This document shows positions 468 through 34,543 of a stretch of 34,543 bases of DNA, in pieces. The DNA is from a virus: the UHGV virus genome UHGV-0068935; one strand, given 5' to 3'. A program made the position numbers and the translations under genes. Every line of letters starts with the position of its first letter. The first letter of the stretch is position 1. The notes beneath the pieces were generated by a model. It searched no databases, was not told the origin of the DNA, and saw nothing but the letters and a program-made list of their open reading frames with translations.

Positions 468-1463
468 TTATGGGCAAAATCTGGACAACTCCGCAACCGG
501 ATTGAACCTTACCGCGTCCTGGAGATAATCAGGTGCAAAGTGCGCATAGGTCATTGTTTGCTGAATTGTGCTGTGCCCTAAAATACGCTGAAGGGTAATA
601 ATGTTCCCTCCATTTATCATGAAATGAGTTGCGAATGTGTGCCGTAAAACATGCACAGACTGACCGACTGGTAAATCAGGCCGCACAGTCCTTATTGCAC
701 TTCTGACTATCGCATAACTGGGGTTCATTAATCTTCCAGTCGCTTTGACTTTAATCAGAGATTCAAGATCTTTAGCTATAGGAATAACCCGCCGCGATCC
801 ATTCTTTGTCTCCATGAAAATAACCTTCCCACCAATTATGTGTTCACCTTTAATATTGGCAACTTCACCCCAGCGCCCGCCTGTAGCCAGGCTTAACAAT
901 ACAGCCTTAAGATTATCGCCAGATAAAAGTGCGGTTAGCCTGGGAATATCATCATGTGCAAGATAAGCCATTTCCGGCTGATTAATTGTTAGCTTGCGTA
1001 TCTCGTGAAACGGGTTATCACCCACAAACTCTTCAACATCAATCAGCTTTTCAAAGAAACCACTCATCATTGCACAATAACGATTTACCGTTGACTGCTT
1101 AATTCCGCGATTCATTAATTCAAGGCGATATCTGATAATATTTTTTCGGGTTAAGTGGTCACTTCTGTTAATACCAAGCTCTTGCATATCACGAAGAACC
1201 GCTTCAATTCTGACCCGATTCATCGCGCCATAACGATGATTCTTACCGTGGTACACCCACCACAGTTCCAGAAGATCGCTTAACGCTTTACGTTCAATAG
1301 GTTTTTCGACCCAGTCCTTATCGTGATAATGCGTCAGAACATGGCGTTCATACATCGCCGCTTCACCACGGGTAGGAAATCGCCGCCGAAATCTTCTTCC
1401 TTCAGATCCAGCAGGCCGCACGTCCACACAGTATTTGCCATCAGCGAGCTTCTTAATCGACAT
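468..1463 (-). CDS. int: Tyrosine integrase, P2 Int-like
   Basis: N-terminus MSIKKLADGKYCVDVRP and C-terminus HVLRHTFATHFMINGGNIITLQRILGHSTIQQTMTYAHFAPDYLQDA closely match my memory of P2 Int; start set at the internal Met matching the P2 N-terminus (track ORF extends to 1499). Confidence 0.9.
   Translation of the reverse strand: MSIKKLADGKYCVDVRPAGSEGRRFRRRFPTRGEAAMYERHVLTHYHDKDWVEKPIERKALSDLLELWWVYHGKNHRYGAMNRVRIEAVLRDMQELGINRSDHLTRKNIIRYRLELMNRGIKQSTVNRYCAMMSGFFEKLIDVEEFVGDNPFHEIRKLTINQPEMAYLAHDDIPRLTALLSGDNLKAVLLSLATGGRWGEVANIKGEHIIGGKVIFMETKNGSRRVIPIAKDLESLIKVKATGRLMNPSYAIVRSAIRTVRPDLPVGQSVHVLRHTFATHFMINGGNIITLQRILGHSTIQQTMTYAHFAPDYLQDAVRFNPVAELSRFCP
476..489. repeat. Putative Int arm-type site AAAATCTGGACAAC, left copy
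   Basis: 13 of 14 nt identical to AAAATGTGGACAAC at 34401..34414; both sit about 50-110 bp inside the proposed att cores. Confidence 0.3.
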
Positions 1464-1529
1464 AAGGAAGCCCCCCAATGAAAACATCATCTTGATCACA
1501 ATTTTGAGAAATAAAGGCCAGATGGACCG

Positions 1530-1829
1530 TTAACCAGTCTTCTTGCCGGAGTGGGATGATTCCGCTTCGCTTTGCCCAATGTGTGCGAGAGCCGGTACCA
1601 CCTGCCCGGCCTTTGGTTCGACCTCATCGAACAAAAACCAGTCACGGTATTTACGGAAACGAGCGTGCCGCAAAAGAAGGATCCCAAAATCAAGAGGCAT
1701 CTTAGATTTCCCACTTTCATAGCCATGATATGTATAGTAATTAATTCCAATTAAATCAGATAGTTCCTTCATTTTCATCCGTTCGGACTCTCTGATAAGT
1801 TTTAATTTCTCATTTTGCGGTATTGACAT
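1530..1829 (-). CDS. C: Immunity repressor C, P2 C-like (99 aa)
   Basis: C-terminal PALAHIGQSEAESSHSGKKTG matches P2 C (PALAHFGQNETTSPHSGQKTG); HTH in N-terminal half; start at internal Met MSIPQ to give the P2-like length. Confidence 0.85.
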   Translation of the reverse strand: MSIPQNEKLKLIRESERMKMKELSDLIGINYYTYHGYESGKSKMPLDFGILLLRHARFRKYRDWFLFDEVEPKAGQVVPALAHIGQSEAESSHSGKKTG

Positions 1830-1851
1830 AATTTTTCTAATCTCCAATAAT
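1823..1851 (+). promoter_or_regulatory. Putative early promoter Pe (TTGACA-N17-AATAAT) reading into cox
   Basis: Consensus -35 TTGACA at 1823..1828 and AATAAT 17 nt downstream, in the C-cox intergenic switch region; the -35 overlaps the C start codon. Confidence 0.4.
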
Positions 1852-1936
1852 TTTTGTGTATAGCAACACAAGAATAGTCGCAATTGGTTCTACATGGTCC
1901 CTATTCGAAAAAGGGGCCAATAACGGAGGATACCAG

Positions 1937-2392: not shown

Positions 2393-2623
2393 ATGATTAA
2401 ACACACGGAAATCAGACAAAGAATAAAAATAAGCGACGACGCTTCAGTAATAATCTGTAATCAGAACTTAGATGCCATTGTTCGGGCTGGCAACGATTTG
2501 TATTTCCATTACCCGACCCATTGCATCGTTGTGACATTTGAAACAGAAGAGTCCTTAAAAAATGCAATGGAGCAGACAGGATTTCAGAATGAAACAGTAA
2601 TAAGAAAAGACAACTGGGCATAA
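2393..2623 (+). CDS. Hypothetical early protein (76 aa)
   Basis: ORF with GGAGG RBS upstream, in early operon. Confidence 0.5.
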   Translation: MIKHTEIRQRIKISDDASVIICNQNLDAIVRAGNDLYFHYPTHCIVVTFETEESLKNAMEQTGFQNETVIRKDNWA

Positions 2624-2675
2624 ATACCAATACACCGTTATTTCAATTCTTTTAACTTAAGCGGGTTTTTCCGAT

Positions 2676-3011
2676 ATGACACAGCGACGCAACTTCCGCA
2701 CTGGCACAGAACGCCACGCAGCCCGTTTCTCAACCAGTGCATCACGCAGCAACACGCACTACAGCCTGCAGGAAACGCACGCCACACCTGACGGGCATCC
2801 GGTTAAACAAACCGGTAAACACACCTGGCTGATTAATGATGCCGGAATTGTCATTCACCGGGGCGCACGCAACCCGATTACCGGGAATACCTGTTACTCC
2901 CTGACTCGCGGAGATGAGCAGTTCGGGCAGGATTTCACCCTGCACGAAGCATTAAGAACGGCAGACCGATTAATCAGCGGTCGCAGTTTTCAGCATCCAT
3001 GGGGGAATTAA
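2676..3011 (+). CDS. Hypothetical early protein (111 aa)
   Basis: ORF in early operon, no recognisable motif. Confidence 0.4.
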   Translation: MTQRRNFRTGTERHAARFSTSASRSNTHYSLQETHATPDGHPVKQTGKHTWLINDAGIVIHRGARNPITGNTCYSLTRGDEQFGQDFTLHEALRTADRLISGRSFQHPWGN

Positions 3012-3014
3012 TAC

Positions 3015-3269
3015 ATGGCAACAACGACAAAAGACATGGCAGAGATAGCATCAGCCTACACAATTATCATACACCGGCTCATAGCTAATAATGCCCGTAA
3101 TGCACTAAATACAGCAAAACCTTTATGGGAAACAAAAAAAGATATCATCAGCGCATTACAGGGGCTACAGAAATGCGCCGACCTCGCAGGCGATTACGCC
3201 GCATACATGGCTATTGAAGACACGATAGAGAAGATTGAATCAGGTAAATCATTAAGCGATTTTGTTTAA
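3015..3269 (+). CDS. Hypothetical early protein (84 aa)
   Basis: Tightly packed ORF in same orientation. Confidence 0.45.
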   Translation: MATTTKDMAEIASAYTIIIHRLIANNARNALNTAKPLWETKKDIISALQGLQKCADLAGDYAAYMAIEDTIEKIESGKSLSDFV

Positions 3270-6083: not shown

Positions 6084-8599
6084 GCGACCATAATGCACAA
6101 CTGGCGTACCCGTGGAACGCCCCGCTACCGGTTATCGATCCTGAAACGTTCGGCAGAGCGCAGCCAACCGCATTACGCCAGGCCATTCAGAGCTACATCA
6201 ACGAGGATATTCGCACTGACGCCAGACTGGATGAAGAAACCGTCGCCTTCCTGACAACCACAGACGAAGGGAAGCGAATTAATTCGCATCTTTACCACGA
6301 CGAAGAGCGTCGGATCAGGCTGGAAAAACTGGCGCGGCACAAACACGAGAATCCGCCAACACTGGTATCTGAAGCCATGGCAGAGCTGCGCGCCCTGCCG
6401 CCGTTTCTTGCCGGTCCGCTCATCCGTGACCTGGCGCGCCTGAGCCGCAAACAGGAGAGCGCACGCCGGGAAGGGCTTAAGAATAACAGCGCATATGCGG
6501 CGGATAACTTCGTTCGTCACGGGCTGCGTGCCCGCCTGAAACGTATCGCCCGTGTGAATGAACGCTTTGCCACCCCGGCCTTTAAGGCCACCGCCGCGCG
6601 CGAACGGCTGGATGAACTGCTTATGCTGCCACAGCTGAGCCGTGACGAAATCCAGCGCCTTGCCACCCTGACCGCCACCGCGTTTTCCACCGCACTGGAG
6701 CGCGCATGTGATGAAGTCATCGAAAAGACCGGCAGGGGTGACGATGACCTGCTCACCTGGTTACTGACCTACCAGCCACTGGCACACATGGCGTTAAAAC
6801 TGGGTATCACGCCACCCTGCTGGCCGTCGCTGGAAATCAGGCCCGACCGCCGCACCGACCCCGACCCGGAACGGGTGCCGGGTGCGGTCATGCGCCTTTC
6901 CTGTGCGACATGGTGGAACAGTCAGTTAAGACACCTCCGGGACATCTGGCGTGAAGAACTGTTACGCGCCGCAGGTCTGGTGTCACGTAAGACATCGGTA
7001 TATATCAGCCATGAAGCGTTACTGGACTGGCGCGAAAAACGCCAGCGCACCCGCGATTTTCTGAAGGCCTGGGACATCGAGAACGAAGAGGGAGAACGGT
7101 TCAGCCTTGAGGATATCTACTGGGCAGGTCTCTCTAATCCGCGTAACCGCCGTAACGAGATGATGACCTGCGCCCGGGGAATGGAGCAGGTCGCCGAAGC
7201 ACGCGGCGACGTGGCGTTTTTCGTCACCGTCACAGCCCCTTCCCGTTTTCACAGCGTGAACGATGACGGCAGCCTGAACCCGAAATACTGCGGAGCAACG
7301 GTACGCGATGCCAGTGATTATCTGGTTTACCGCTTTTTCGCCGCCGTCCGCAGGGCCATCGACAAGGCCGGGCTGGGCTGGTACGGCGTGCGCACCGTGG
7401 AGCCCCACCACGACGGTACACCGCACTGGCACATGCTGGTATTCACCAGCCAGGAAAACGAAGCCCGTATCACTGAAATCATGCGCAACGCCGCCATCAG
7501 GGAGGACCGCGCAGAGCTGGGTGATGATATCTCCCCGCGTTTTAAATGCAAAAAAATCGACCCGGCAAAAGGCACACCGACAAGCTATATCGCGACCTAT
7601 ATCGGTAAGAACCTGGACGCCAGCACCTTCATGGGGAATGACCCGAAAACCGGCAAACCTTACGTCGATAAGGAATCAGGCAAAACCATGGCCGAAACCG
7701 TGGAGAACGCCATCGGCTGGGCAGGCCTTCACCGCATCCACCAGTTCCAGTTCTTCGGTATCCCTCCCCGCCAGGTATGGCGCGAACTCCGCCGTCTTGC
7801 CGGGCAAATGGCCCGTAACCCGGCTGCCCCGCAGCGTCTGGACCATGACGACATTGACGCCATACTGGCCGCCGCCGACGTGGGATGTTTTGCCACCTAT
7901 ATCACCCGCCAGGGTGGTGTGCTCATTCCCCGCAACACGTACCTGGTCCGCACCGCATACGAAACTGCCGAAGAGGCCAACGACTACGGCGAATTCCCGC
8001 AACGCATTTACGGCGTCCGCGCCCCGTCACTCGGGGAGCGCTACACCATATGCACCCACCCGGACACCTGGAAACTGGTCAGACGTAAGCCGGAAAACGA
8101 AGACCGCACGGACGAGGGTTTTGACGTTGAGTGCGGCTTTGCCGCACCTTGGACTCGTGGCAATAACTGTCCCCCTGACCAGAATCTGACCATAAACGAC
8201 CCGCCAGAAAGGCAGCCGGACGGACGCAGGGAGCAGCGACTTACCCTGCCGGAAGGTGATTTGGGTGAATGGTTAAGGTCACTGACCCCTACAGAGCGAA
8301 AACAACTCACCAGGCAGCTGAAAAACCCGCCACCTGACACGGAAACCGTGAAAAACGGCGGCATCAGTGCGCCCGCTGGCGGCGTTCGCGTGAGTGTCGC
8401 ACTGACCGCTGAGCCACACATCACCGCACAAATCACCCGTGAGCTTGATGCTCTGGGCGTGCAGCTGCATGAAAGCGCCGTCGTTTCCGTCCGTCACGGT
8501 GCCCGCGTGCGCCTGGCTGACGGACGCACCGCGTACTGGAATGACAGCACCCGCCGCATTGATATCACCCCCGCACCGAATACGGAAGCGCCACAATGA
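6071..8599 (+). CDS. A: Rolling-circle replication initiator endonuclease, P2 gpA-like (HUH superfamily)
   Basis: HUH motif in EPHHDGTPHWHMLVF and catalytic tyrosine motif SYIATYIGKNLD as in phiX174/P2 A proteins; 842 aa. Confidence 0.85.
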   Translation: MRRMSDHNAQLAYPWNAPLPVIDPETFGRAQPTALRQAIQSYINEDIRTDARLDEETVAFLTTTDEGKRINSHLYHDEERRIRLEKLARHKHENPPTLVSEAMAELRALPPFLAGPLIRDLARLSRKQESARREGLKNNSAYAADNFVRHGLRARLKRIARVNERFATPAFKATAARERLDELLMLPQLSRDEIQRLATLTATAFSTALERACDEVIEKTGRGDDDLLTWLLTYQPLAHMALKLGITPPCWPSLEIRPDRRTDPDPERVPGAVMRLSCATWWNSQLRHLRDIWREELLRAAGLVSRKTSVYISHEALLDWREKRQRTRDFLKAWDIENEEGERFSLEDIYWAGLSNPRNRRNEMMTCARGMEQVAEARGDVAFFVTVTAPSRFHSVNDDGSLNPKYCGATVRDASDYLVYRFFAAVRRAIDKAGLGWYGVRTVEPHHDGTPHWHMLVFTSQENEARITEIMRNAAIREDRAELGDDISPRFKCKKIDPAKGTPTSYIATYIGKNLDASTFMGNDPKTGKPYVDKESGKTMAETVENAIGWAGLHRIHQFQFFGIPPRQVWRELRRLAGQMARNPAAPQRLDHDDIDAILAAADVGCFATYITRQGGVLIPRNTYLVRTAYETAEEANDYGEFPQRIYGVRAPSLGERYTICTHPDTWKLVRRKPENEDRTDEGFDVECGFAAPWTRGNNCPPDQNLTINDPPERQPDGRREQRLTLPEGDLGEWLRSLTPTERKQLTRQLKNPPPDTETVKNGGISAPAGGVRVSVALTAEPHITAQITRELDALGVQLHESAVVSVRHGARVRLADGRTAYWNDSTRRIDITPAPNTEAPQ

Positions 8600-9000
8600 C
8601 CCGCTTTTATTGCGCCATGCAGCGACAGCGTTTTGACGAAATGATGCGCCAGCGCACGCCCTTACTGACCCTGAACAACATTGCCACGAGACCGCAACCA
8701 GGCGATGAGCTGGAAATCACGGTCGTCAGTCCCGATCGCACCACCACGGCCATCATCACCGACATACTCAACGGACGACCGGACAGCACTAACCGCAGCT
8801 GGCTTGTCGCCGTTCGTCCGCGCCGTCCACCCAGGGAGCCGGAGCCGCTCACGCCTGCCGGAAAAATCATGCGGCAGTACCACGAAGAGCAGGCACACAA
8901 ACACAACGCAGAACTGACCAGAACACTGGCATCGATTAACCGCAAAGCGGCAATTGCCCGCTATGTGCATTCAGCCGCTGGCAGACAATCACGCAGGTAA
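8596..9000 (+). CDS. Hypothetical protein (134 aa)
   Basis: ATGA overlap with the A stop codon. Confidence 0.45.
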   Translation: MTRFYCAMQRQRFDEMMRQRTPLLTLNNIATRPQPGDELEITVVSPDRTTTAIITDILNGRPDSTNRSWLVAVRPRRPPREPEPLTPAGKIMRQYHEEQAHKHNAELTRTLASINRKAAIARYVHSAAGRQSRR

Positions 9001-9048
9001 ACAAAGACCATGAACATAACCAGAAACAGCCAACTAAAGGAGCGCACC

Positions 9049-9219
9049 ATGAACAGCACCAGGAGGATCAGCGACAGAGAGCTTACGAAAATGATTGAGT
9101 CGGCGCAGCAGCTGCTTTCACGACAAAACCCGGTCGTGGAAGAAACATGGTGGGAGAATTTACTGGCAGCACTGACCGAACTCCGGGAACGCCGGAACAA
9201 CGAAGGAGCCGCCAAATGA
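9049..9219 (+). CDS. Hypothetical small protein (56 aa; alternative start 9010)
   Basis: AAGGAG RBS 7 nt upstream of ATG 9049. Confidence 0.4.
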   Translation: MNSTRRISDRELTKMIESAQQLLSRQNPVVEETWWENLLAALTELRERRNNEGAAK

Positions 9220-9542
9220 AGACCCCAGGAATGACCGGAAAGGAAATCATTTTACGCTACCTGGAAACGCACGCACGTTTCAGCGCCCCAGAACTGGTAG
9301 AAAAACTGGGCGTGAAAAGAACCGTCATTAATCAGGCCGCCGGAAAAATGGTACGGGAAGGGTTGCTGGTTGTGGACGGGTACACGGACAAGATAACGCA
9401 TTACCGGAAGCCAACGGAAAAGGAACGACAGGAACTGGCGCAACGGGCTGAACAGCAGCAGGAAAAATCAGTCATCGAAGCCTGCAAGCGCAGCGAAATC
9501 ATGAAGCGAATTCTGTTTATCTACGGCGCTGCATTCCGTTAA
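9216..9542 (+). CDS. Putative winged-helix DNA-binding protein (108 aa)
   Basis: Predicted HTH (SAPELVEKLGVKRTVINQAAGKMVREGLL); ATGA overlap with upstream ORF. Confidence 0.45.
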   Translation: MKTPGMTGKEIILRYLETHARFSAPELVEKLGVKRTVINQAAGKMVREGLLVVDGYTDKITHYRKPTEKERQELAQRAEQQQEKSVIEACKRSEIMKRILFIYGAAFR

Positions 9543-29610: not shown

Positions 29611-31284
29611 ATGAACCCCACTAAACGTCTGTTACTGGGTAACGACACCATTCAGCTGGTCAGTTGTTCCGTCATGCTTGAGCTGAACGCGTGCGGACGC
29701 GGATTTATCACGGCCAGAACAGAGCAGAACTACACCGGGCGCCCCGTTCGTCTCGATATCGGATACGGAAACGACCTGGTGCGCTGGTTTACCGGATACG
29801 TTGAACGCAGCCAGCCCGCTGAAAACGGCTCGGTGCGACTTCTGATTCGTGAAATGGCGGGGATCCTTGATCACCCCTTCCCCTGTTCATTTCAGCACCC
29901 GACAATGCGCACGGTCACACAGTGGCTGAGTGAGACCAGCGGGCTGGAAATCATCCTGCCGGACAACGCGGCTTACACTGACAGACCCGTTCCGCATTTC
30001 ACACACAGCGGCACGGGCTACGAACTGCTGGCCAGTCTGGGGCGTATTTTCTCCGTACCGGATTACATCTGGCATCCGTTACCGGACGGCGGCATTATGG
30101 CCGCTGCTGCCGCGCAGGGGATGTTTTCCGGTCGCCCCGTCACCATCCCGCACGAGTTCAGCCAGGCATCAACGGGCGGGCACAGTATGACCCTCCCGAT
30201 GATTCAGACGCTGCGACCGGGTGTGGAGGTGAACGGTCAGCGCCTGACGATGGTCATGCTGGAAGATGACAACATGACCATCACGTGGACACCGCGCAAT
30301 AAAGCCACCGGCGCTCCCCTCCAGAAGTCCCCTTTCCGTCGCCAGGCTGAAAAGGCCTTCCCTGAGCTGGCATCAGGGCTTCACCTGCCCAAACTGGCAC
30401 GTGTTGAGGCACCGACCGAAGCCGTCAGCGCGGGCAATATTGCCGACCCGTTCAGACCCCGCTACGCGGTGAATCTCCAGCTGCTTGACGAGAACGGCAA
30501 CCCGGCAGCAGATACGCCCGTCTATAACGCCGTTCCCCTCCCCGTTCCCATGGCGGGCAGTGAGTCCGGCATGTTCCAGTTCCCGCCACCCGGAACCCTG
30601 GTGGAAGTGGGATTTGTGGAAGGCCGGGCGGATAAGCCCTTCATCCGCCAGATAATGGCAGAGGGCCACAATCTGCCCGACGTGAAGCCGGGCGAGCAGT
30701 TGCAGCAACAGCGCGACGGCGTATCGCAGCGCGTGACGGTCGCCGGAGACTGGGAGCGCCAGACAGACCAGCGGATACAGGAGACATCACGCGAGCGCGT
30801 GGTGAGCGCAGACGAGGAAAAGCGGAGCCTGACCAGCCGGGAGACCACCATACAGGCAACCGACACAACCACCGTCCTGGGCGTATCCACGCTTCAGGCT
30901 GGCGCGGTCACCCATATCACTGAAGAGAACTACAGCATCAGCACGGGCGGGCACATGATGGTGGTTGCCGGTACCTGTGAGCGCGACGTGGAAGGCGACA
31001 CCCAGGACACCGTGGGCGGCAGCCTTACCGAAAAGATTAAGGGCGTCCGTCACAGTATTGCGCAGGCGCAGAAGCTGGTTGGCGATACGGTGAAGCTGGG
31101 AAACGAGGGCATTAATGTACTGACCATGCTGACGGACCTTGCCGATGTGGTGGAAGAGCTGGCAGATATTACAGCATCACATACCCACCCAAAAACGGGC
31201 ACGTCTCCGCAGGCCGCACAGTTCAGCCAGGTCGCTCAGGAGTGCCGCCAGCTAAAAAATAAATATTCGCCAATAATCGAATAG
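29611..31284 (+). CDS. Putative baseplate hub / late control D-like tail protein (557 aa)
   Basis: Last gene of late operon, same position as P2 D; assignment by position only. Confidence 0.35.
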   Translation: MNPTKRLLLGNDTIQLVSCSVMLELNACGRGFITARTEQNYTGRPVRLDIGYGNDLVRWFTGYVERSQPAENGSVRLLIREMAGILDHPFPCSFQHPTMRTVTQWLSETSGLEIILPDNAAYTDRPVPHFTHSGTGYELLASLGRIFSVPDYIWHPLPDGGIMAAAAAQGMFSGRPVTIPHEFSQASTGGHSMTLPMIQTLRPGVEVNGQRLTMVMLEDDNMTITWTPRNKATGAPLQKSPFRRQAEKAFPELASGLHLPKLARVEAPTEAVSAGNIADPFRPRYAVNLQLLDENGNPAADTPVYNAVPLPVPMAGSESGMFQFPPPGTLVEVGFVEGRADKPFIRQIMAEGHNLPDVKPGEQLQQQRDGVSQRVTVAGDWERQTDQRIQETSRERVVSADEEKRSLTSRETTIQATDTTTVLGVSTLQAGAVTHITEENYSISTGGHMMVVAGTCERDVEGDTQDTVGGSLTEKIKGVRHSIAQAQKLVGDTVKLGNEGINVLTMLTDLADVVEELADITASHTHPKTGTSPQAAQFSQVAQECRQLKNKYSPIIE

Positions 31285-31298
31285 TTATTCATTTTAAC

Positions 31299-31326
31299 AG
31301 GCCGCGCAATGTGGCCTTTTTTATTC
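31299..31326 (+). terminator. Putative intrinsic terminator after the last tail gene
   Basis: Hairpin AGGCCGCGCAATGTGGCCT followed by TTTTTTATT. Confidence 0.4.
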
Positions 31327-31399
31327 CCCCGATAATAAAAAATATTCATCACAGGACATCACCCGCCACGAAAAAACCGCCCGCAGCAGAAAAAAAGAT

Positions 31400-31995
31400 G
31401 GACGAAACGCCCCACGTAATCCCCACGTAAAACGTCGCGTAACGCCACGTAACGAAGAGATAACCCCGCCAGCCCGATTCGATCCCCTGACATCGGAAAA
31501 CGATTTCTGCGCCCCAAAATCGCCGCAAATGGCCGGAAATTTTCGGGGGCGACGTAACGCGTAAAGTGACGTAATCGGCGCTACCCCGCACACGCCTCCG
31601 GTATTTGTGTACGATAAATTTTGCAAATCGAAAGGGGTGCAAAACACCCCGCCAGGGCGCGCCATTACTGAGGTTTTCCCTTCTGAATGGTTTTGCACTT
31701 TGTGCAAGGTTTTGCAAAAGTGTGCAAAAACTCCGGCTTTCTGAGGATCCCGAAAAATTTTAATGCACTGAATAACAAGAGATTTTTAAAATTACGTCAC
31801 GATCGAAGATCTGAAAAAGGATCCGGCGACGAAAACGAAAAAATCAGGAAAGCCAGAACTGGCGCGGCCTGGCGGGGAGTGGCAGCAAAAATCACTTTTG
31901 CACACTTTTGCACAACTGCTCCGAAAAAGGATGGCGAAGGGGAAGGAAAAACAGCCACGTCATCCGTTGCACGTAACGGACGTAAAAGGTAAATT
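31400..31995. repeat. Repeat-rich non-coding region: phased CGTAA repeats, TTTGCAC/GTGCAAA repeats, GATC cluster
   Basis: At least 9 CGTAA copies in phased groups (10-12 bp spacing at 31414..31453), tandem CTTTTGCACA x2 at 31895..31914, palindrome GGGGTGCAAAACACCCC at 31634..31650, five GATC sites in 31481..31824; no convincing ORF. Confidence 0.45.
31967..31995 (+). promoter_or_regulatory. Putative promoter of hok copy 1 (TTGCAC-N17-TAAATT)
   Basis: Sigma70-like hexamers just upstream of the start of the duplicated hok unit. Confidence 0.3.
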
Positions 31996-32147
31996 ACGCG
32001 CGGGTGCCTTTCGGCTGACGGCTGGAAGGATTACCTGAAGGCCGGATGTGGAAAGGCCCCGAGTCAAACATTTGTTTAACCCGAGGCCCTGACCATCTAC
32101 CTCGCAAGTGGAAGGTTAGCGCCTCCCTGTAAAAGGAGTCAAGCGCT

Positions 32148-32288
32148 ATGCCGCAAAAAACGATCATAGTGAGCATTTTATGCATAACTATTTTGATGAT
32201 TGTCTGGATGATACACAAGTCACCGTGTGAGTTCAGGCTTAACATCATGTGGTCACAATTTGCGGCGTTCTTGCAGTGTAAACAGTAA
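32148..32288 (+). CDS. hok: Hok/Gef-family type I toxin (46 aa, HokA-like)
   Basis: MPQKTIIVSILCITILMIVWMIHKSPCEFRLNIMWSQFAAFLQCKQ matches my memory of HokA (MPQKYRLLSLIVICFTLLFFTWMIRDSLCELHIKQESYELAAFLACKLKE): shared MPQK, TM helix, SxCE and AAFLxCK; AAAAGGAG RBS. Confidence 0.8.
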   Translation: MPQKTIIVSILCITILMIVWMIHKSPCEFRLNIMWSQFAAFLQCKQ

Positions 32289-32378
32289 GAAACCGCAGCG
32301 GGGGTGAAAGCCCCCGCTATCCGGTTGCCGGGTTCGGTCGATATGGCACCCTTTCTCCGTTGGATTACAGACGTATTT

Positions 32379-32401
32379 GCCCGCAATATGCGGGCTTTTT
32401 T
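32379..32401 (+). terminator. Intrinsic terminator of hok copy 1
   Basis: GCCCGCAATATGCGGGC hairpin followed by TTTTTT. Confidence 0.6.
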
Positions 32402-32403
32402 GT

Positions 32404-32607
32404 TCAGTTGTATTTATTGTGGTCGTTACTGGCAGTGGTATTAACTGATTTTGCATGAATAGCACAAATTTTTTCCACGATAACACCACACGCTTCAAGA
32501 TCTTCCGGGCGTGAAACCTTTATTTTTGTAACCGTCTCAGGATTATCAGCCGTTCCACTTTGCACAACCTCAATTTCAATTTTTTTTCTTGAAAGAATCA
32601 TTTTCAT
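32404..32607 (-). CDS. Possible small ORF (67 aa) between the hok copies
   Basis: AT-rich ORF from the track, weak RBS; no recognised motif. Confidence 0.2.
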   Translation of the reverse strand: MKMILSRKKIEIEVVQSGTADNPETVTKIKVSRPEDLEACGVIVEKICAIHAKSVNTTASNDHNKYN

Positions 32608-32686
32608 CGCCCCGACACAGGACAGAGTAAGCCTGTGCGAAAGAATATCACCAGTGCGATAGCGTTGTCTGCTTCAACGCCAGGCA

Positions 32687-32715
32687 TTGCGCACACAAAG
32701 GGAAATCAGTACATT
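32687..32715 (+). promoter_or_regulatory. Putative promoter of hok copy 2 (TTGCGC-N17-TACATT)
   Basis: Same architecture and position as the copy 1 promoter. Confidence 0.3.
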
Positions 32716-32870
32716 ACACGCGGGTGCCTTTCGGCTGATGGCTGGAAGGATTACCTGAAGGCCGGATGTGGAAAGGCCCCGAGTCAACTTAAATGTTAAC
32801 CCGAGGCCCTAACACTTCCTACCGTGACAAGTGGAAGGTTAGCGCCTCCCTGTAAAAGGAGTCAAGCGCT

Positions 32871-33011
32871 ATGCCGCAAAAAACGATCATCGTGAGCATT
32901 TTATGCTTAACCATGTTGTTGACCGTCTGGATGATACACCGTTCTCCGTGTGAGTTCAGACTTAACATCATGTGGTCAGAATTTGCGGCGTTCTTGCAGT
33001 GTAAACCGTAA
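32871..33011 (+). CDS. hok: Hok/Gef-family type I toxin (46 aa), second copy
   Basis: MPQKTIIVSILCLTMLLTVWMIHRSPCEFRLNIMWSEFAAFLQCKP; same RBS and frame as copy 1. Confidence 0.8.
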   Translation: MPQKTIIVSILCLTMLLTVWMIHRSPCEFRLNIMWSEFAAFLQCKP

Positions 33012-33101
33012 GAAACCGCAGCGGGGGTGAAAGCCCCCGCTATCCGGTTGCCGGGTTCGGTCGATATGGCACCCTTTCTCCGTTGAATTACATAGACATT
33101 T

Positions 33102-33134
33102 GCCCGCGATATGCGGGCTATATTTTTATTTTTT
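33102..33134 (+). terminator. Intrinsic terminator of hok copy 2, abutting the stop of the convergent 398-aa gene
   Basis: GCCCGCGATATGCGGGC hairpin followed by T-rich tract. Confidence 0.55.
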
Positions 33135-34322
33135 GAATAGGTTAATAAATTCAGGTTTTTTCTTATCTCCTGCTTCCCTTCGTTTAACCCAACAACACCC
33201 TGACTGAAGTAAACAGACAAATTCATCCTGCTTCAGCTCTAAGGTGTCTTTAAGTTTTAATTGTTTTTTCGCAGCATCAGGAACAAAAACATCAACAATA
33301 ATCTTTCCGGGGTCATACAGTTGAGTTTCAATCAGCACAGGTAATTTATGGACAGGTCTGGGTTCCATACGAGAAAAAGAAAACTCACCATCCATCACAC
33401 CATCAAAAGTACTTACAGAATCGTAACCAGAAAAGCACTCATATTTCACCTGAAGAACAACAGCATCATCAAGCTTTAAAAAATCGCAATAAGAATCATA
33501 CGCCAGGCGATCACTATAAAAAACATCACCGCGATTAAACTGAAAGGAATCCCCTTGCGTCCAAATTTCATAATTAAAAAACTCTGTTTTTACTGGGGTA
33601 AGTTTTATATCCAAAGAATCCTTGTAACACTCTTTTACAGCAAAGCGCCAACCAGCTGCGTAACCATCAACAAATACCGCAATCAACGCATTACTACGGC
33701 GAAACTCCCTTACAGTACGGATAGAAAGCGAGAACTCATCTATCATACTCTTGTAAGTGTTAACATCCTTCTCAAGCGATTTACTGATATCATTCTCAAC
33801 CACGCAGTCTTGCTCAAGAGGAATTTCACCAGTATCAATAAAATTGATAAATTGTTCTTCTGTCAGAATAATTACGCCATAATCGCTGGCTTTCTGAACT
33901 TTCCGCCACCCTTTGTTCTTTCCTACACAAAGGAAAAACAAACTTTTTCCAACATCAGACTTAACATCAATACCATTTTCTTTTGCAAGAGCACTTAAGC
34001 GAGATTTATCAGACTGGTCAAATCCGGTAAAACAAATTGAAATTGAATTCTTTTTGGGTGAAGATTTTCGGGGGGGGGGGGCAATATACTGACTGAAATC
34101 AGTTTCAGACGCAACCTTATTCAACTCCTGGTCGCTAGAAAACATCTGAATAACACGGTCTTTCAAAAAGGTACGAAATGCGCGACGAGTTAAAGAGAAT
34201 CCTTGTAAATAATCCCCTTTTTCAGCCACCTTTATCACGCATTGAGCCGACAACTCCCCTCTACCGTTAACATACAGAAAAAACGCCTCTTTATTTTCGT
34301 TTATCATTTCCCTATCAAACAT
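33126..34322 (-). CDS. Cargo protein with WYL-like N-terminal motif, Pro-rich linker, BRCT-like domain and uncharacterised C-terminal domain (398 aa)
   Basis: Residues about 93-165 (ICFTGFDQSDKSRLSALAKENGIDVKSDVGKSLFFLCVGKNKGWRKVQKASDYGVIILTEEQFINFI) follow the BRCT pattern of the NAD-ligase C-terminus; residues about 37-58 (DYLQGFSLTRRAFRTFLKDRVI) resemble the WYL signature; markedly AT-rich; GGGGG SD-like element upstream. Confidence 0.6.
   Translation of the reverse strand: MFDREMINENKEAFFLYVNGRGELSAQCVIKVAEKGDYLQGFSLTRRAFRTFLKDRVIQMFSSDQELNKVASETDFSQYIAPPPRKSSPKKNSISICFTGFDQSDKSRLSALAKENGIDVKSDVGKSLFFLCVGKNKGWRKVQKASDYGVIILTEEQFINFIDTGEIPLEQDCVVENDISKSLEKDVNTYKSMIDEFSLSIRTVREFRRSNALIAVFVDGYAAGWRFAVKECYKDSLDIKLTPVKTEFFNYEIWTQGDSFQFNRGDVFYSDRLAYDSYCDFLKLDDAVVLQVKYECFSGYDSVSTFDGVMDGEFSFSRMEPRPVHKLPVLIETQLYDPGKIIVDVFVPDAAKKQLKLKDTLELKQDEFVCLLQSGCCWVKRREAGDKKKPEFINLFKK
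34070..34081. repeat. Homopolymeric G tract (about 12 nt; C12 on coding strand) inside the 398-aa gene
   Basis: Run of G in the sequence; the ORF track reads it in frame as Ala-Pro-Pro-Pro-Arg. My hand count of the printed text gave 11 G, but the track translation requires 12, so exact length is uncertain by 1. Confidence 0.75.
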
Positions 34323-34357
34323 AGGACCCCCGTATCAGGCTTAACATTTTGTATATG

Positions 34358-34385
34358 CTTAGCCCGCGAATCATTACGGGCTAAG
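34358..34385. promoter_or_regulatory. Perfect 9-bp inverted repeat (CTTAGCCCG-N10-CGGGCTAAG) upstream of the 398-aa gene
   Basis: Located 36-63 bp upstream of the start codon on the minus strand; operator-like geometry. Confidence 0.3.
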
Positions 34386-34400
34386 ATGTATCGCTATGGC

Positions 34401-34414
34401 AAAATGTGGACAAC
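34401..34414. repeat. Putative Int arm-type site AAAATGTGGACAAC, right copy
   Basis: Near-identical to 476..489; lies 46 bp inside the proposed attR core. Confidence 0.3.
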
Positions 34415-34459
34415 GAGAAAAATAATCCTTTATTTTTCATTGCATTACATCAATTTTCG

Positions 34460-34476
34460 CGCCACCCGAAGGTGGC
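34460..34476. repeat. attR: Putative attR core (CGCCACCCGAAGGTGGC), right copy of 17-bp direct repeat
   Basis: Identical to 362..378; here forms a terminator-like hairpin (CGCCACC-CGAA-GGTGGCG) followed by a T-rich tract. Confidence 0.45.
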
Positions 34477-34543
34477 GTGCTTTTATTATTACTTATCCCT
34501 GTCTAACCAGTCGCCGCTTTCAATTAGCTTTAATCCATCGACG

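Follow-up and report, generated by a model that had tools for sequence, protein, structure and literature searches.

A WYL-BRCT cargo protein with a candidate new C-terminal domain and a variable poly-C tract in a P2/HP1-family prophage of Escherichia coli: a possible exclusion or defence gene

The WYL sensors PafBC, DriD, BrxR, CapW, the CRISPR-associated WYL1 and the WYL domain of Pif1 are linked to defence and to the sensing of DNA damage. PafBC and DriD are damage-response regulators activated by single-stranded DNA (ssDNA). BRCT domains of the RFC1/LigA class bind 5'-phosphate DNA ends and nicks, the T/S-G and the lysine of the BRCT pocket being the phosphate-binding residues. Here we describe a gene combining modules of both kinds with a third domain, a 398-amino-acid (aa) open reading frame (ORF) in the UHGV virus genome UHGV-0068935 (34,543 nucleotides, nt; this whole stretch of DNA is called the window below). 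The window is a complete P2/HP1-family (Peduoviridae-like) prophage of E. coli. The domain anatomy of the protein, its cargo position, the modularity of its family and the variable C-tract within the gene are established. As for the function, we infer that the protein may be expressed in the lysogen as a nucleic-acid-sensing superinfection-exclusion or defence protein, gated by the C-tract in this particular allele; this reading is tentative, and we give it somewhat less than an even chance.

The ORF and the parts of the encoded protein are as follows.

33126–34322, minus strand: 398-aa ORF with an ATG start and the stop codon at 33126–33128, in which WYL-like and BRCT domains are joined by a helical linker to a new C-terminal domain (ORF list)
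34098–34322, minus strand: N-terminal, probably WYL-like divergent five-stranded beta-barrel, aa 1–75, with the strands at aa 13–61 (AlphaFold2 model, signature)
33819–34052, minus strand: BRCT domain of the RFC1/LigA DNA-binding type, aa 91–168 (Pfam, profile search, Foldseek)
33714–33818, minus strand: acidic linker, aa 169–203, with a long predicted helix at aa 175–200 (AlphaFold2 model)
33129–33713, minus strand: C-terminal beta-rich domain (C-domain), aa 204–398, about 195 aa (conserved core of the wider family)

With the WYL sensors listed above the protein seems to share the Sm/SH3-like five-stranded barrel and the signature YL-x-G...R-x-F-R-x-D-R-[IV]. Unlike the WYL regulators, it has no winged helix-turn-helix or other transcription-factor module, and its very divergent WYL domain precedes the BRCT domain and the new domain. 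LigA and RFC1 provide the best sequence and structure matches to the BRCT domain and share the TG...K pocket columns with it; however, the protein has neither a ligase nor an AAA+ module, and its BRCT domain is sandwiched between the other two. The original prediction for this locus, made from the sequence alone, had known of no described defence system with such an architecture, and PADLOC-DB v2.0.0 agrees with it. The only match there is the candidate system PDC-S48, with which the BRCT part alone is shared (27.8 bits, profile positions 313–406 of 411, that is, about 94 positions); the remainder of the PDC-S48 profile is unmatched, and the WYL part and the C-domain of the 398-aa protein are not covered. 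WYL-BRCT fusions and the association of WYL domains with defence were noted in passing by Makarova et al. 2014 (PMC4012209).

The BRCT domain, which the original prediction had likened to that of LigA, is recognised by Pfam PF00533 at aa 91–160 with 35.4 bits (E = 1.3e-8), the gathering threshold being 21.3. When the family profile is compared with PDB sequences, it retrieves RFC1 (2.6e-5) and LigA (1.6e-4), the F-T-G and G-x-x-K-x-x-K-A columns being aligned. In the AlphaFold2 (AF2) model of the whole protein, with a predicted local distance difference test (pLDDT) score of 78, residues 95–164 adopt the BRCT fold (beta-alpha-beta-beta-alpha-beta-alpha), and Foldseek matches it, at probability 1.00, to dozens of BRCT domains of solved structure, the best being RFC1 (E about 1e-4). 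Across the family G100 and K141 are invariant, and T99 is conserved in at least 90% of sequences. By these pocket columns the domain belongs to the DNA-end-binding RFC1/LigA subclass, and binding of such ends is predicted.

Since short homologues are annotated as DNA ligases, a ligase or a ligase fragment has to be considered, and both the NCBIfam LigA models and the PHROG families named 'DNA ligase' do match the protein. However, TIGR00575 scores 30.3 bits against 444, and only profile positions 542–652, the BRCT end, are involved. The domain content refutes this assignment, since the adenylation, OB, zinc-finger and HhH domains are all lacking; we regard it as practically impossible.

The N-terminal region carries the signature YLQGFS...RAFRTFLKDRV, whose family-conserved form is YLQG(Y/F)S...RTFRKDRV. 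The Pfam WYL model (PF13280) is not reached (12.2 bits against 21.8, E = 0.19, aa 37–58 only). On the other hand, the three best matches of the N-domain profile among PDB sequences are all WYL proteins, at marginal E-values (PafC, 0.0057; 8bnv, 0.011; PafBC, 0.048), and Foldseek finds PafBC (9fnd_Y) for this domain with E = 8.8e-3 and probability 0.99. Thus the WYL resemblance suggested in the original prediction fails at the Pfam threshold and is retained, marginally, by the signature, the family profile and the predicted fold; with moderate confidence, residues from about 10 to 62 are a divergent WYL-like domain.

For the C-terminal 195–230 or so residues no relative was found in Pfam, PADLOC or among the solved structures of the PDB, in line with the earlier statement that this region matches nothing known. 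Its conserved motifs are R-S-x-x-L-I-A-x-F-x-D-G-Y-A-x-G-W, A-L-D-I-K-L-T, W-T-Q-G and F-L-Q-T-G. As judged from these searches and from the conservation, the C-terminal part of about 195 aa appears to be a domain without previous description. Among the polar positions of its core, only R, D, T and Q are invariant, and a catalytic-type His, Glu, Lys, Ser or Cys is not among them, which argues against a classical hydrolase. Two candidate assignments were rejected. A beta-hairpin of the ABM/Dabb type (2omo, E = 0.51; one member of our set A3 against PF03992, E = 0.092) was judged to be noise. A PD-(D/E)xK nuclease could be imagined from the 'D...D-I-K' string; the first aspartate and the lysine vary across A3, and no nuclease fold was found.

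The C-domain belongs to a large family. An exhaustive phmmer search with this domain alone yielded 345 cluster representatives at E ≤ 1e-3 (84 of them also at E ≤ 1e-10), the majority being stand-alone proteins of about 160–240 aa. In other members it is combined with small domains, either in one protein or through an adjoining gene (P and L numbers are our own identifiers).

P0060, P0112 and L088: C-domain fused to BRCT, in permuted order
P0038 and P0070: C-domain fused to WYL-like barrels
P0129 and L089: C-domain fused to SWIM zinc fingers
L023, L025 and L082: C-domain gene adjoining a separate small SWIM gene
L019 and L095: C-domain gene adjoining a separate WYL gene (PADLOC WYL, E = 0.0023)
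L021: C-domain gene adjoining a separate BRCT gene (hhalign, E = 3.6e-5)

Several C-domain variants occupy the repressor–integrase slot of temperate elements, and chromosomal copies are found beside the toxin–antitoxin genes ParE, HicA or BrnA. One phage group has, after the full-length gene, a gene for a protein of about 300 aa with a C-terminal BRCT domain (L031, 7233–8150; L032–L036; L043, 5053–5940). This partner is 42% identical to the L021 partner (2447–3064) of a stand-alone C-domain gene from an unrelated genome, pointing to a two-gene variant that is conserved. The helical N-terminal part of the partner looks TerB-like by eye only. Therefore the 'single-gene' description given in the original prediction is not general: some phages carry the TerB-like/BRCT partner, and elsewhere the C-domain has separate SWIM, WYL or BRCT partners. 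Defence systems often have this layout, a constant core with swappable small nucleic-acid-binding partners, and in them the effector is the constant part; for the present family this would be an analogy and not a proof.

Full-length homologues are rare and gammaproteobacterial. They form 26 clusters at 90% identity and are 34–58% identical to the window protein; the sources include Escherichia, Salmonella, Enterobacter, Pectobacterium, Yersinia and Aeromonas, as well as Serratia, Oceanisphaera and Vibrio. Their alignment has 47 invariant columns. The gene is present in two of 5426 complete E. coli genomes, and the intact protein was seen in 45 blocks of the contig collection; a scan of genome contigs with A1 gave 8 loci only, and a word-indexed search with aa 1–170 returned near-identical fragments only. 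The ORF is genuine, not a chance one, since it extends over 1197 nt in DNA of 38% GC and has homologues at 34–58% identity in several genera. One homologue, P0022 (485 aa), has an additional C-terminal extension of about 90 aa that by eye looks like a second BRCT copy (…ITITGTF…GGSV…NILIFG…).

Within the window the gene lies at the far end of the prophage, whose borders and lysogeny genes are as follows.

468–1499, minus strand: integrase, int (gene annotation of the window)
1530–1883, minus strand: cI-like helix-turn-helix (HTH) protein (gene annotation of the window)
34460–34476, no strand assigned: attR copy of the 17-bp att core, the attL copy being at 362–378 (direct repeat)

The repeat that bounds the prophage is CGCCACCCGAAGGTGGC, and just beyond the border comes the host gene ytfP, as seen in a near-identical complete genome, where the 398-aa ORF is annotated merely as "BRCT domain-containing protein". 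Other genes of the window encode the GPA replication protein, the portal, the terminase, the tape-measure protein, the tail fibres and the HP1_ORF34 baseplate protein. The last baseplate/tail gene (29611–31284) is followed by two tandem hok loci and then by the 398-aa gene, which starts 138 bp inside attR. The cargo site between the tail genes and attR was thus correctly placed, and the coordinates and strand given for the ORF were exact. Its foreign composition, also noted before, is evident from a GC fraction of 0.382 (0.331 at third codon positions, GC3) against 0.582 (58.2%) in the phage backbone at 5001–31284. Hence the gene has the attributes of a cargo gene ('moron'): it lies inside the borders, deviates in composition, and varies in presence at a fixed position among related prophages.

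This variability is seen in the slot between hok and ytfP, which in other E. coli may be empty (H13), be taken by a 138-aa gene unrelated to this one (H3) or carry a 58%-identical allele (P0002). In the prophage at ytfP of NZ_AP045178.1, a hypothetical 138-aa gene (L101, 3594–4010), unrelated to the 398-aa protein, fills the hok–attR slot; in NZ_AP045180.1 that slot is empty. The E. coli copies of the gene lie at the att end beside hok, on both HP1-like (L026, L027) and ogr/gpD P2-like (L028) backbones, and one of them (L016) is at a different att site, with rpoD as the neighbour instead of ytfP.

A survey of homologues had been proposed together with the original prediction, and it places the full-length gene within P2-like prophages wherever the context was read, in a variable cargo slot. 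In Pectobacterium, Aeromonas and many IMG/VR contigs the order is cI-X-gene-int on one strand, with either a 2-bp gap or a 4-bp overlap between the gene and int, and this position inside the cI–int operon implies expression alongside the lysogeny genes. Once the phage of the window is circularised, its minus strand reads cI, int, attP, the 398-aa gene, so that the att-end and cI–int positions fall into a single neighbourhood.

The commonest relative in P2-like phages is a short WYL-BRCT protein of about 160 aa without the C-domain. Recovered by phage tblastn and from IMG/VR, it accounts for about 40 of the 73 IMG/VR loci (L045–L087), and its gene is either convergent with ogr or located directly after cI. 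An example is gp44 of Escherichia phage 500465-1 (L002, 3998–4480). Database records name such proteins 'DNA ligase' or '(putative) exonuclease', and only the BRCT domain backs the label.

As the WYL-BRCT module alone is a common gene of P2-like phages, a role in the phage's own biology is a live rival to a role in exclusion or defence. The protein would then sense DNA damage, gaps or ends in the service of the lysis–lysogeny decision, induction, integration, excision or replication, and other phages would not be its target. The frequency of the short form right after cI or convergent with ogr is consistent with that, as is the close translational packing of full-length homologues within the cI–int operon; the WYL relatives PafBC and DriD, of which PafBC matches the N-domain, are themselves ssDNA-activated regulators of the damage response. 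However, the gene is dispensable, the slot being empty or otherwise filled in related prophages and the gene itself so infrequent among complete E. coli genomes; its composition is foreign to the backbone; there is no HTH or other output domain that would tie the protein to transcription; and the C-domain occurs also outside phages, beside toxin–antitoxin genes. On balance we consider a purely phage-intrinsic role unlikely.

The gene contains an unusual feature, which had been overlooked in the original prediction.

34070–34081, minus strand: C12 homopolymer of the coding strand, G12 when read on the plus strand, which encodes A-P-P-P-R in the WYL-BRCT linker (sequence)

This is the only G/C run of at least 8 in the window, and it differs between isolates, many of which are frameshifted. 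As read from DNA, the tract is C12 in the window and in ten contigs chosen for encoding the identical protein, C15 in NZ_CP148318, and C10, hence frameshifted, in three IMG/VR contigs with three different backbones; one Logan contig has C5 and another CCTC11, these two odd lengths both stemming from minimally processed assemblies. The protein calls of the 90% cluster imply C8, C9, C10, C11 and C13 as well, and many 'partial' calls start right after the tract. For the listed members of the cluster, 81 contigs have the frameshifted 328-aa form (C10) and 19 the intact 398-aa form. In the C10 state there are two overlapping ORFs, encoding the WYL part only and the BRCT part with the C-domain, which resembles the split two-gene arrangements elsewhere in the family. 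Other alleles of the family have no C-tract. A scan of metagenomes for the tract with a variable gap found nothing.

The tract thus has the hallmarks of a phase-variable locus, a homopolymer of at least 8 within an ORF whose length differences between isolates shift the frame, and is a candidate on/off switch operating by slipped-strand mispairing; it may also be a hotspot of assembly errors or a sign of simple decay. A long intragenic G/C homopolymer with differences that are not multiples of three is shared with the poly-G/C contingency loci of Campylobacter, Neisseria and Haemophilus and with phase-variable restriction–modification systems. In contrast to those established loci, here the length differences are between isolates or assemblies and may partly be an assembly artefact. 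To our knowledge, homopolymer switches have rarely been reported in E. coli or in prophage cargo.

If this allele were mostly a decaying, non-functional remnant in E. coli, the homopolymer would be a site prone to mutation, and in part an artefact of sequencing, and would not serve as a switch. The excess of the C10 form among the listed members and the many partial calls can be understood in this way, as can the presence of C10 in all three IMG/VR copies and the origin of the two odd lengths. However, the tract apart, the copies are 99–100% identical and have no other disabling lesion. Moreover, the in-frame lengths C9, C12 and C15 coexist with out-of-frame ones, as reversible slippage predicts, the intact protein persists in the contig collection, and the wider family is well conserved, as the invariant columns of its alignment demonstrate. 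Decay therefore seems quite improbable.

As for expression, a hairpin scan identified two terminator-like structures next to the stop codon of the gene.

33019–33042, minus strand: terminator-like hairpin for the 398-aa gene, 84 nt past its stop codon (hairpin scan)
33102–33118, plus strand: terminator-like hairpin with a T-run at the end of the hok transcript, the T-run overlapping the stop of the 398-aa ORF (hairpin scan)

The gene is convergent with the nearer hok gene (32871–33011, plus strand), as had been stated. The terminator said to be common to both is not literally shared, because two separate hairpins face each other. The 17-bp att core itself coincides with the stem-loop of the apparent ytfP terminator (338–380). 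On the minus strand a T-run follows the att-core hairpin only at attL, downstream of int, and at attR the letters after the hairpin are AAAATTGATG; integration thus parts ytfP from the T-run of its terminator. Read-through from ytfP into the cargo gene after integration is therefore plausible.

In the proposed exclusion or defence mechanism, sensing would be the first step. The WYL barrel may bind single-stranded nucleic acid, as the WYL domains of PafBC, DriD and Pif1 do, and the RFC1/LigA-type BRCT domain may bind a 5'-phosphate DNA end, a nick or a recessed junction; together they would detect a competitor phage, on entry or during its replication, by its gaps, ends or replication intermediates. 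In the second step the C-domain, a conserved core with interchangeable sensors (SWIM, WYL, TerB-like/BRCT), would execute the response, for example by blocking ligation, replication or packaging or by triggering growth arrest. The restriction of its invariant polar residues to R, D, T and Q favours a role in binding, occluding or oligomerising over that of a nuclease or NADase. Finally, slipped-strand changes in the C12 tract would gate the output of this E. coli allele, and transcription of the prophage gene may enter from the host ytfP, the attR hairpin lacking a T-run.

Several points weigh against this reading. The exclusion or defence function is an inference only, and many other defence candidates of similar standing exist. 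PADLOC-DB v2.0.0 contains no full-length defence-system match to the protein, the relatives of the C-domain compared with PADLOC show no match in that domain either, and a literature search yielded no paper linking BRCT domains to anti-phage defence. The C-domain has no recognisable effector chemistry or fold relative, and calling it an effector is an argument from architecture alone. Furthermore, WYL-BRCT proteins without the C-domain are commoner in P2-like phages, and a phage-intrinsic role fits that at least equally well. Many copies of this particular allele are frameshifted, which could mean decay instead of switching. Upstream of the gene, the minus strand showed no sigma-70-like promoter.

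A different use of the same modules would be counter-defence or DNA protection, the protein shielding the ends and gaps of phage DNA or disturbing end recognition by host LigA or by clamp loaders. Points in favour are the BRCT domain, which belongs to the DNA-end-binding RFC1/LigA type, the lack of a catalytic signature and the fact that the protein is phage-encoded. However, the gene lies within the lysogeny operon or at the att end and apart from the early lytic genes, which is typical of cargo expressed in the lysogen and not of early anti-defence genes, and stand-alone C-domain genes reside in bacterial chromosomes beside toxin–antitoxin modules. This makes a protective role very unlikely.

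The exclusion or defence reading can be extended from this gene to its family. The C-domain would then represent a new, widespread non-enzymatic immune or exclusion family of temperate phages and mobile elements, wired to WYL, BRCT, SWIM or TerB-like readers, the E. coli P2-type version reading ssDNA and 5'-phosphate junctions as a phase-variable, poly-C-controlled defence; so broad a generalisation is doubtful. If true, it would bring a new sensor–effector architecture and a new domain (at least 345 sequence clusters) into prophage-borne immunity, it would provide the first bacterial anti-phage role of a BRCT domain, as far as the literature search shows, and the 'DNA ligase' label on the WYL-BRCT genes in many P2-like phage records would be a mis-annotation. 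The C-tract, which might place prophage cargo of E. coli under the control of a contingency locus, is convenient for genetic work, since ON and OFF alleles occur naturally. Even if the protein senses damage for the phage's own needs, the modular family offers a tractable entry to the coupling of WYL and BRCT readers to outputs.

The known cargo and defence-hotspot genes of P2-like phages include old, tin and Z/fun (Rousset et al. 2022, PMC9122126; PMC13586616), and minor defence hotspots of these phages, at the integrase–att and integrase–primase positions, are described in a 2026 survey (PMC13586616). Common to these hotspots and the present locus are a variable foreign gene at an integrase/att slot and alternative cargo in related prophages. 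Unlike the genes of the main hotspot, the 398-aa gene lies outside the GpA–GpQ interval, and the PADLOC models miss it. According to the literature, P2-like phages have their main defence hotspot between the genes for the GPA replication protein and the portal; in the window this position corresponds to 8596–9542 and holds two small ORFs of 134 and 131 aa.

At the opposite end, no Sok or other RNA family, including hok RNA, was detected at the Rfam gathering thresholds in the interval 31200–34543. The two tandem hok/gef toxin loci (32148–32288 and 32871–33011, plus strand) encode 46 aa each. Their surroundings are 91% identical over about 413 bp, and related prophages have one, two or three copies.

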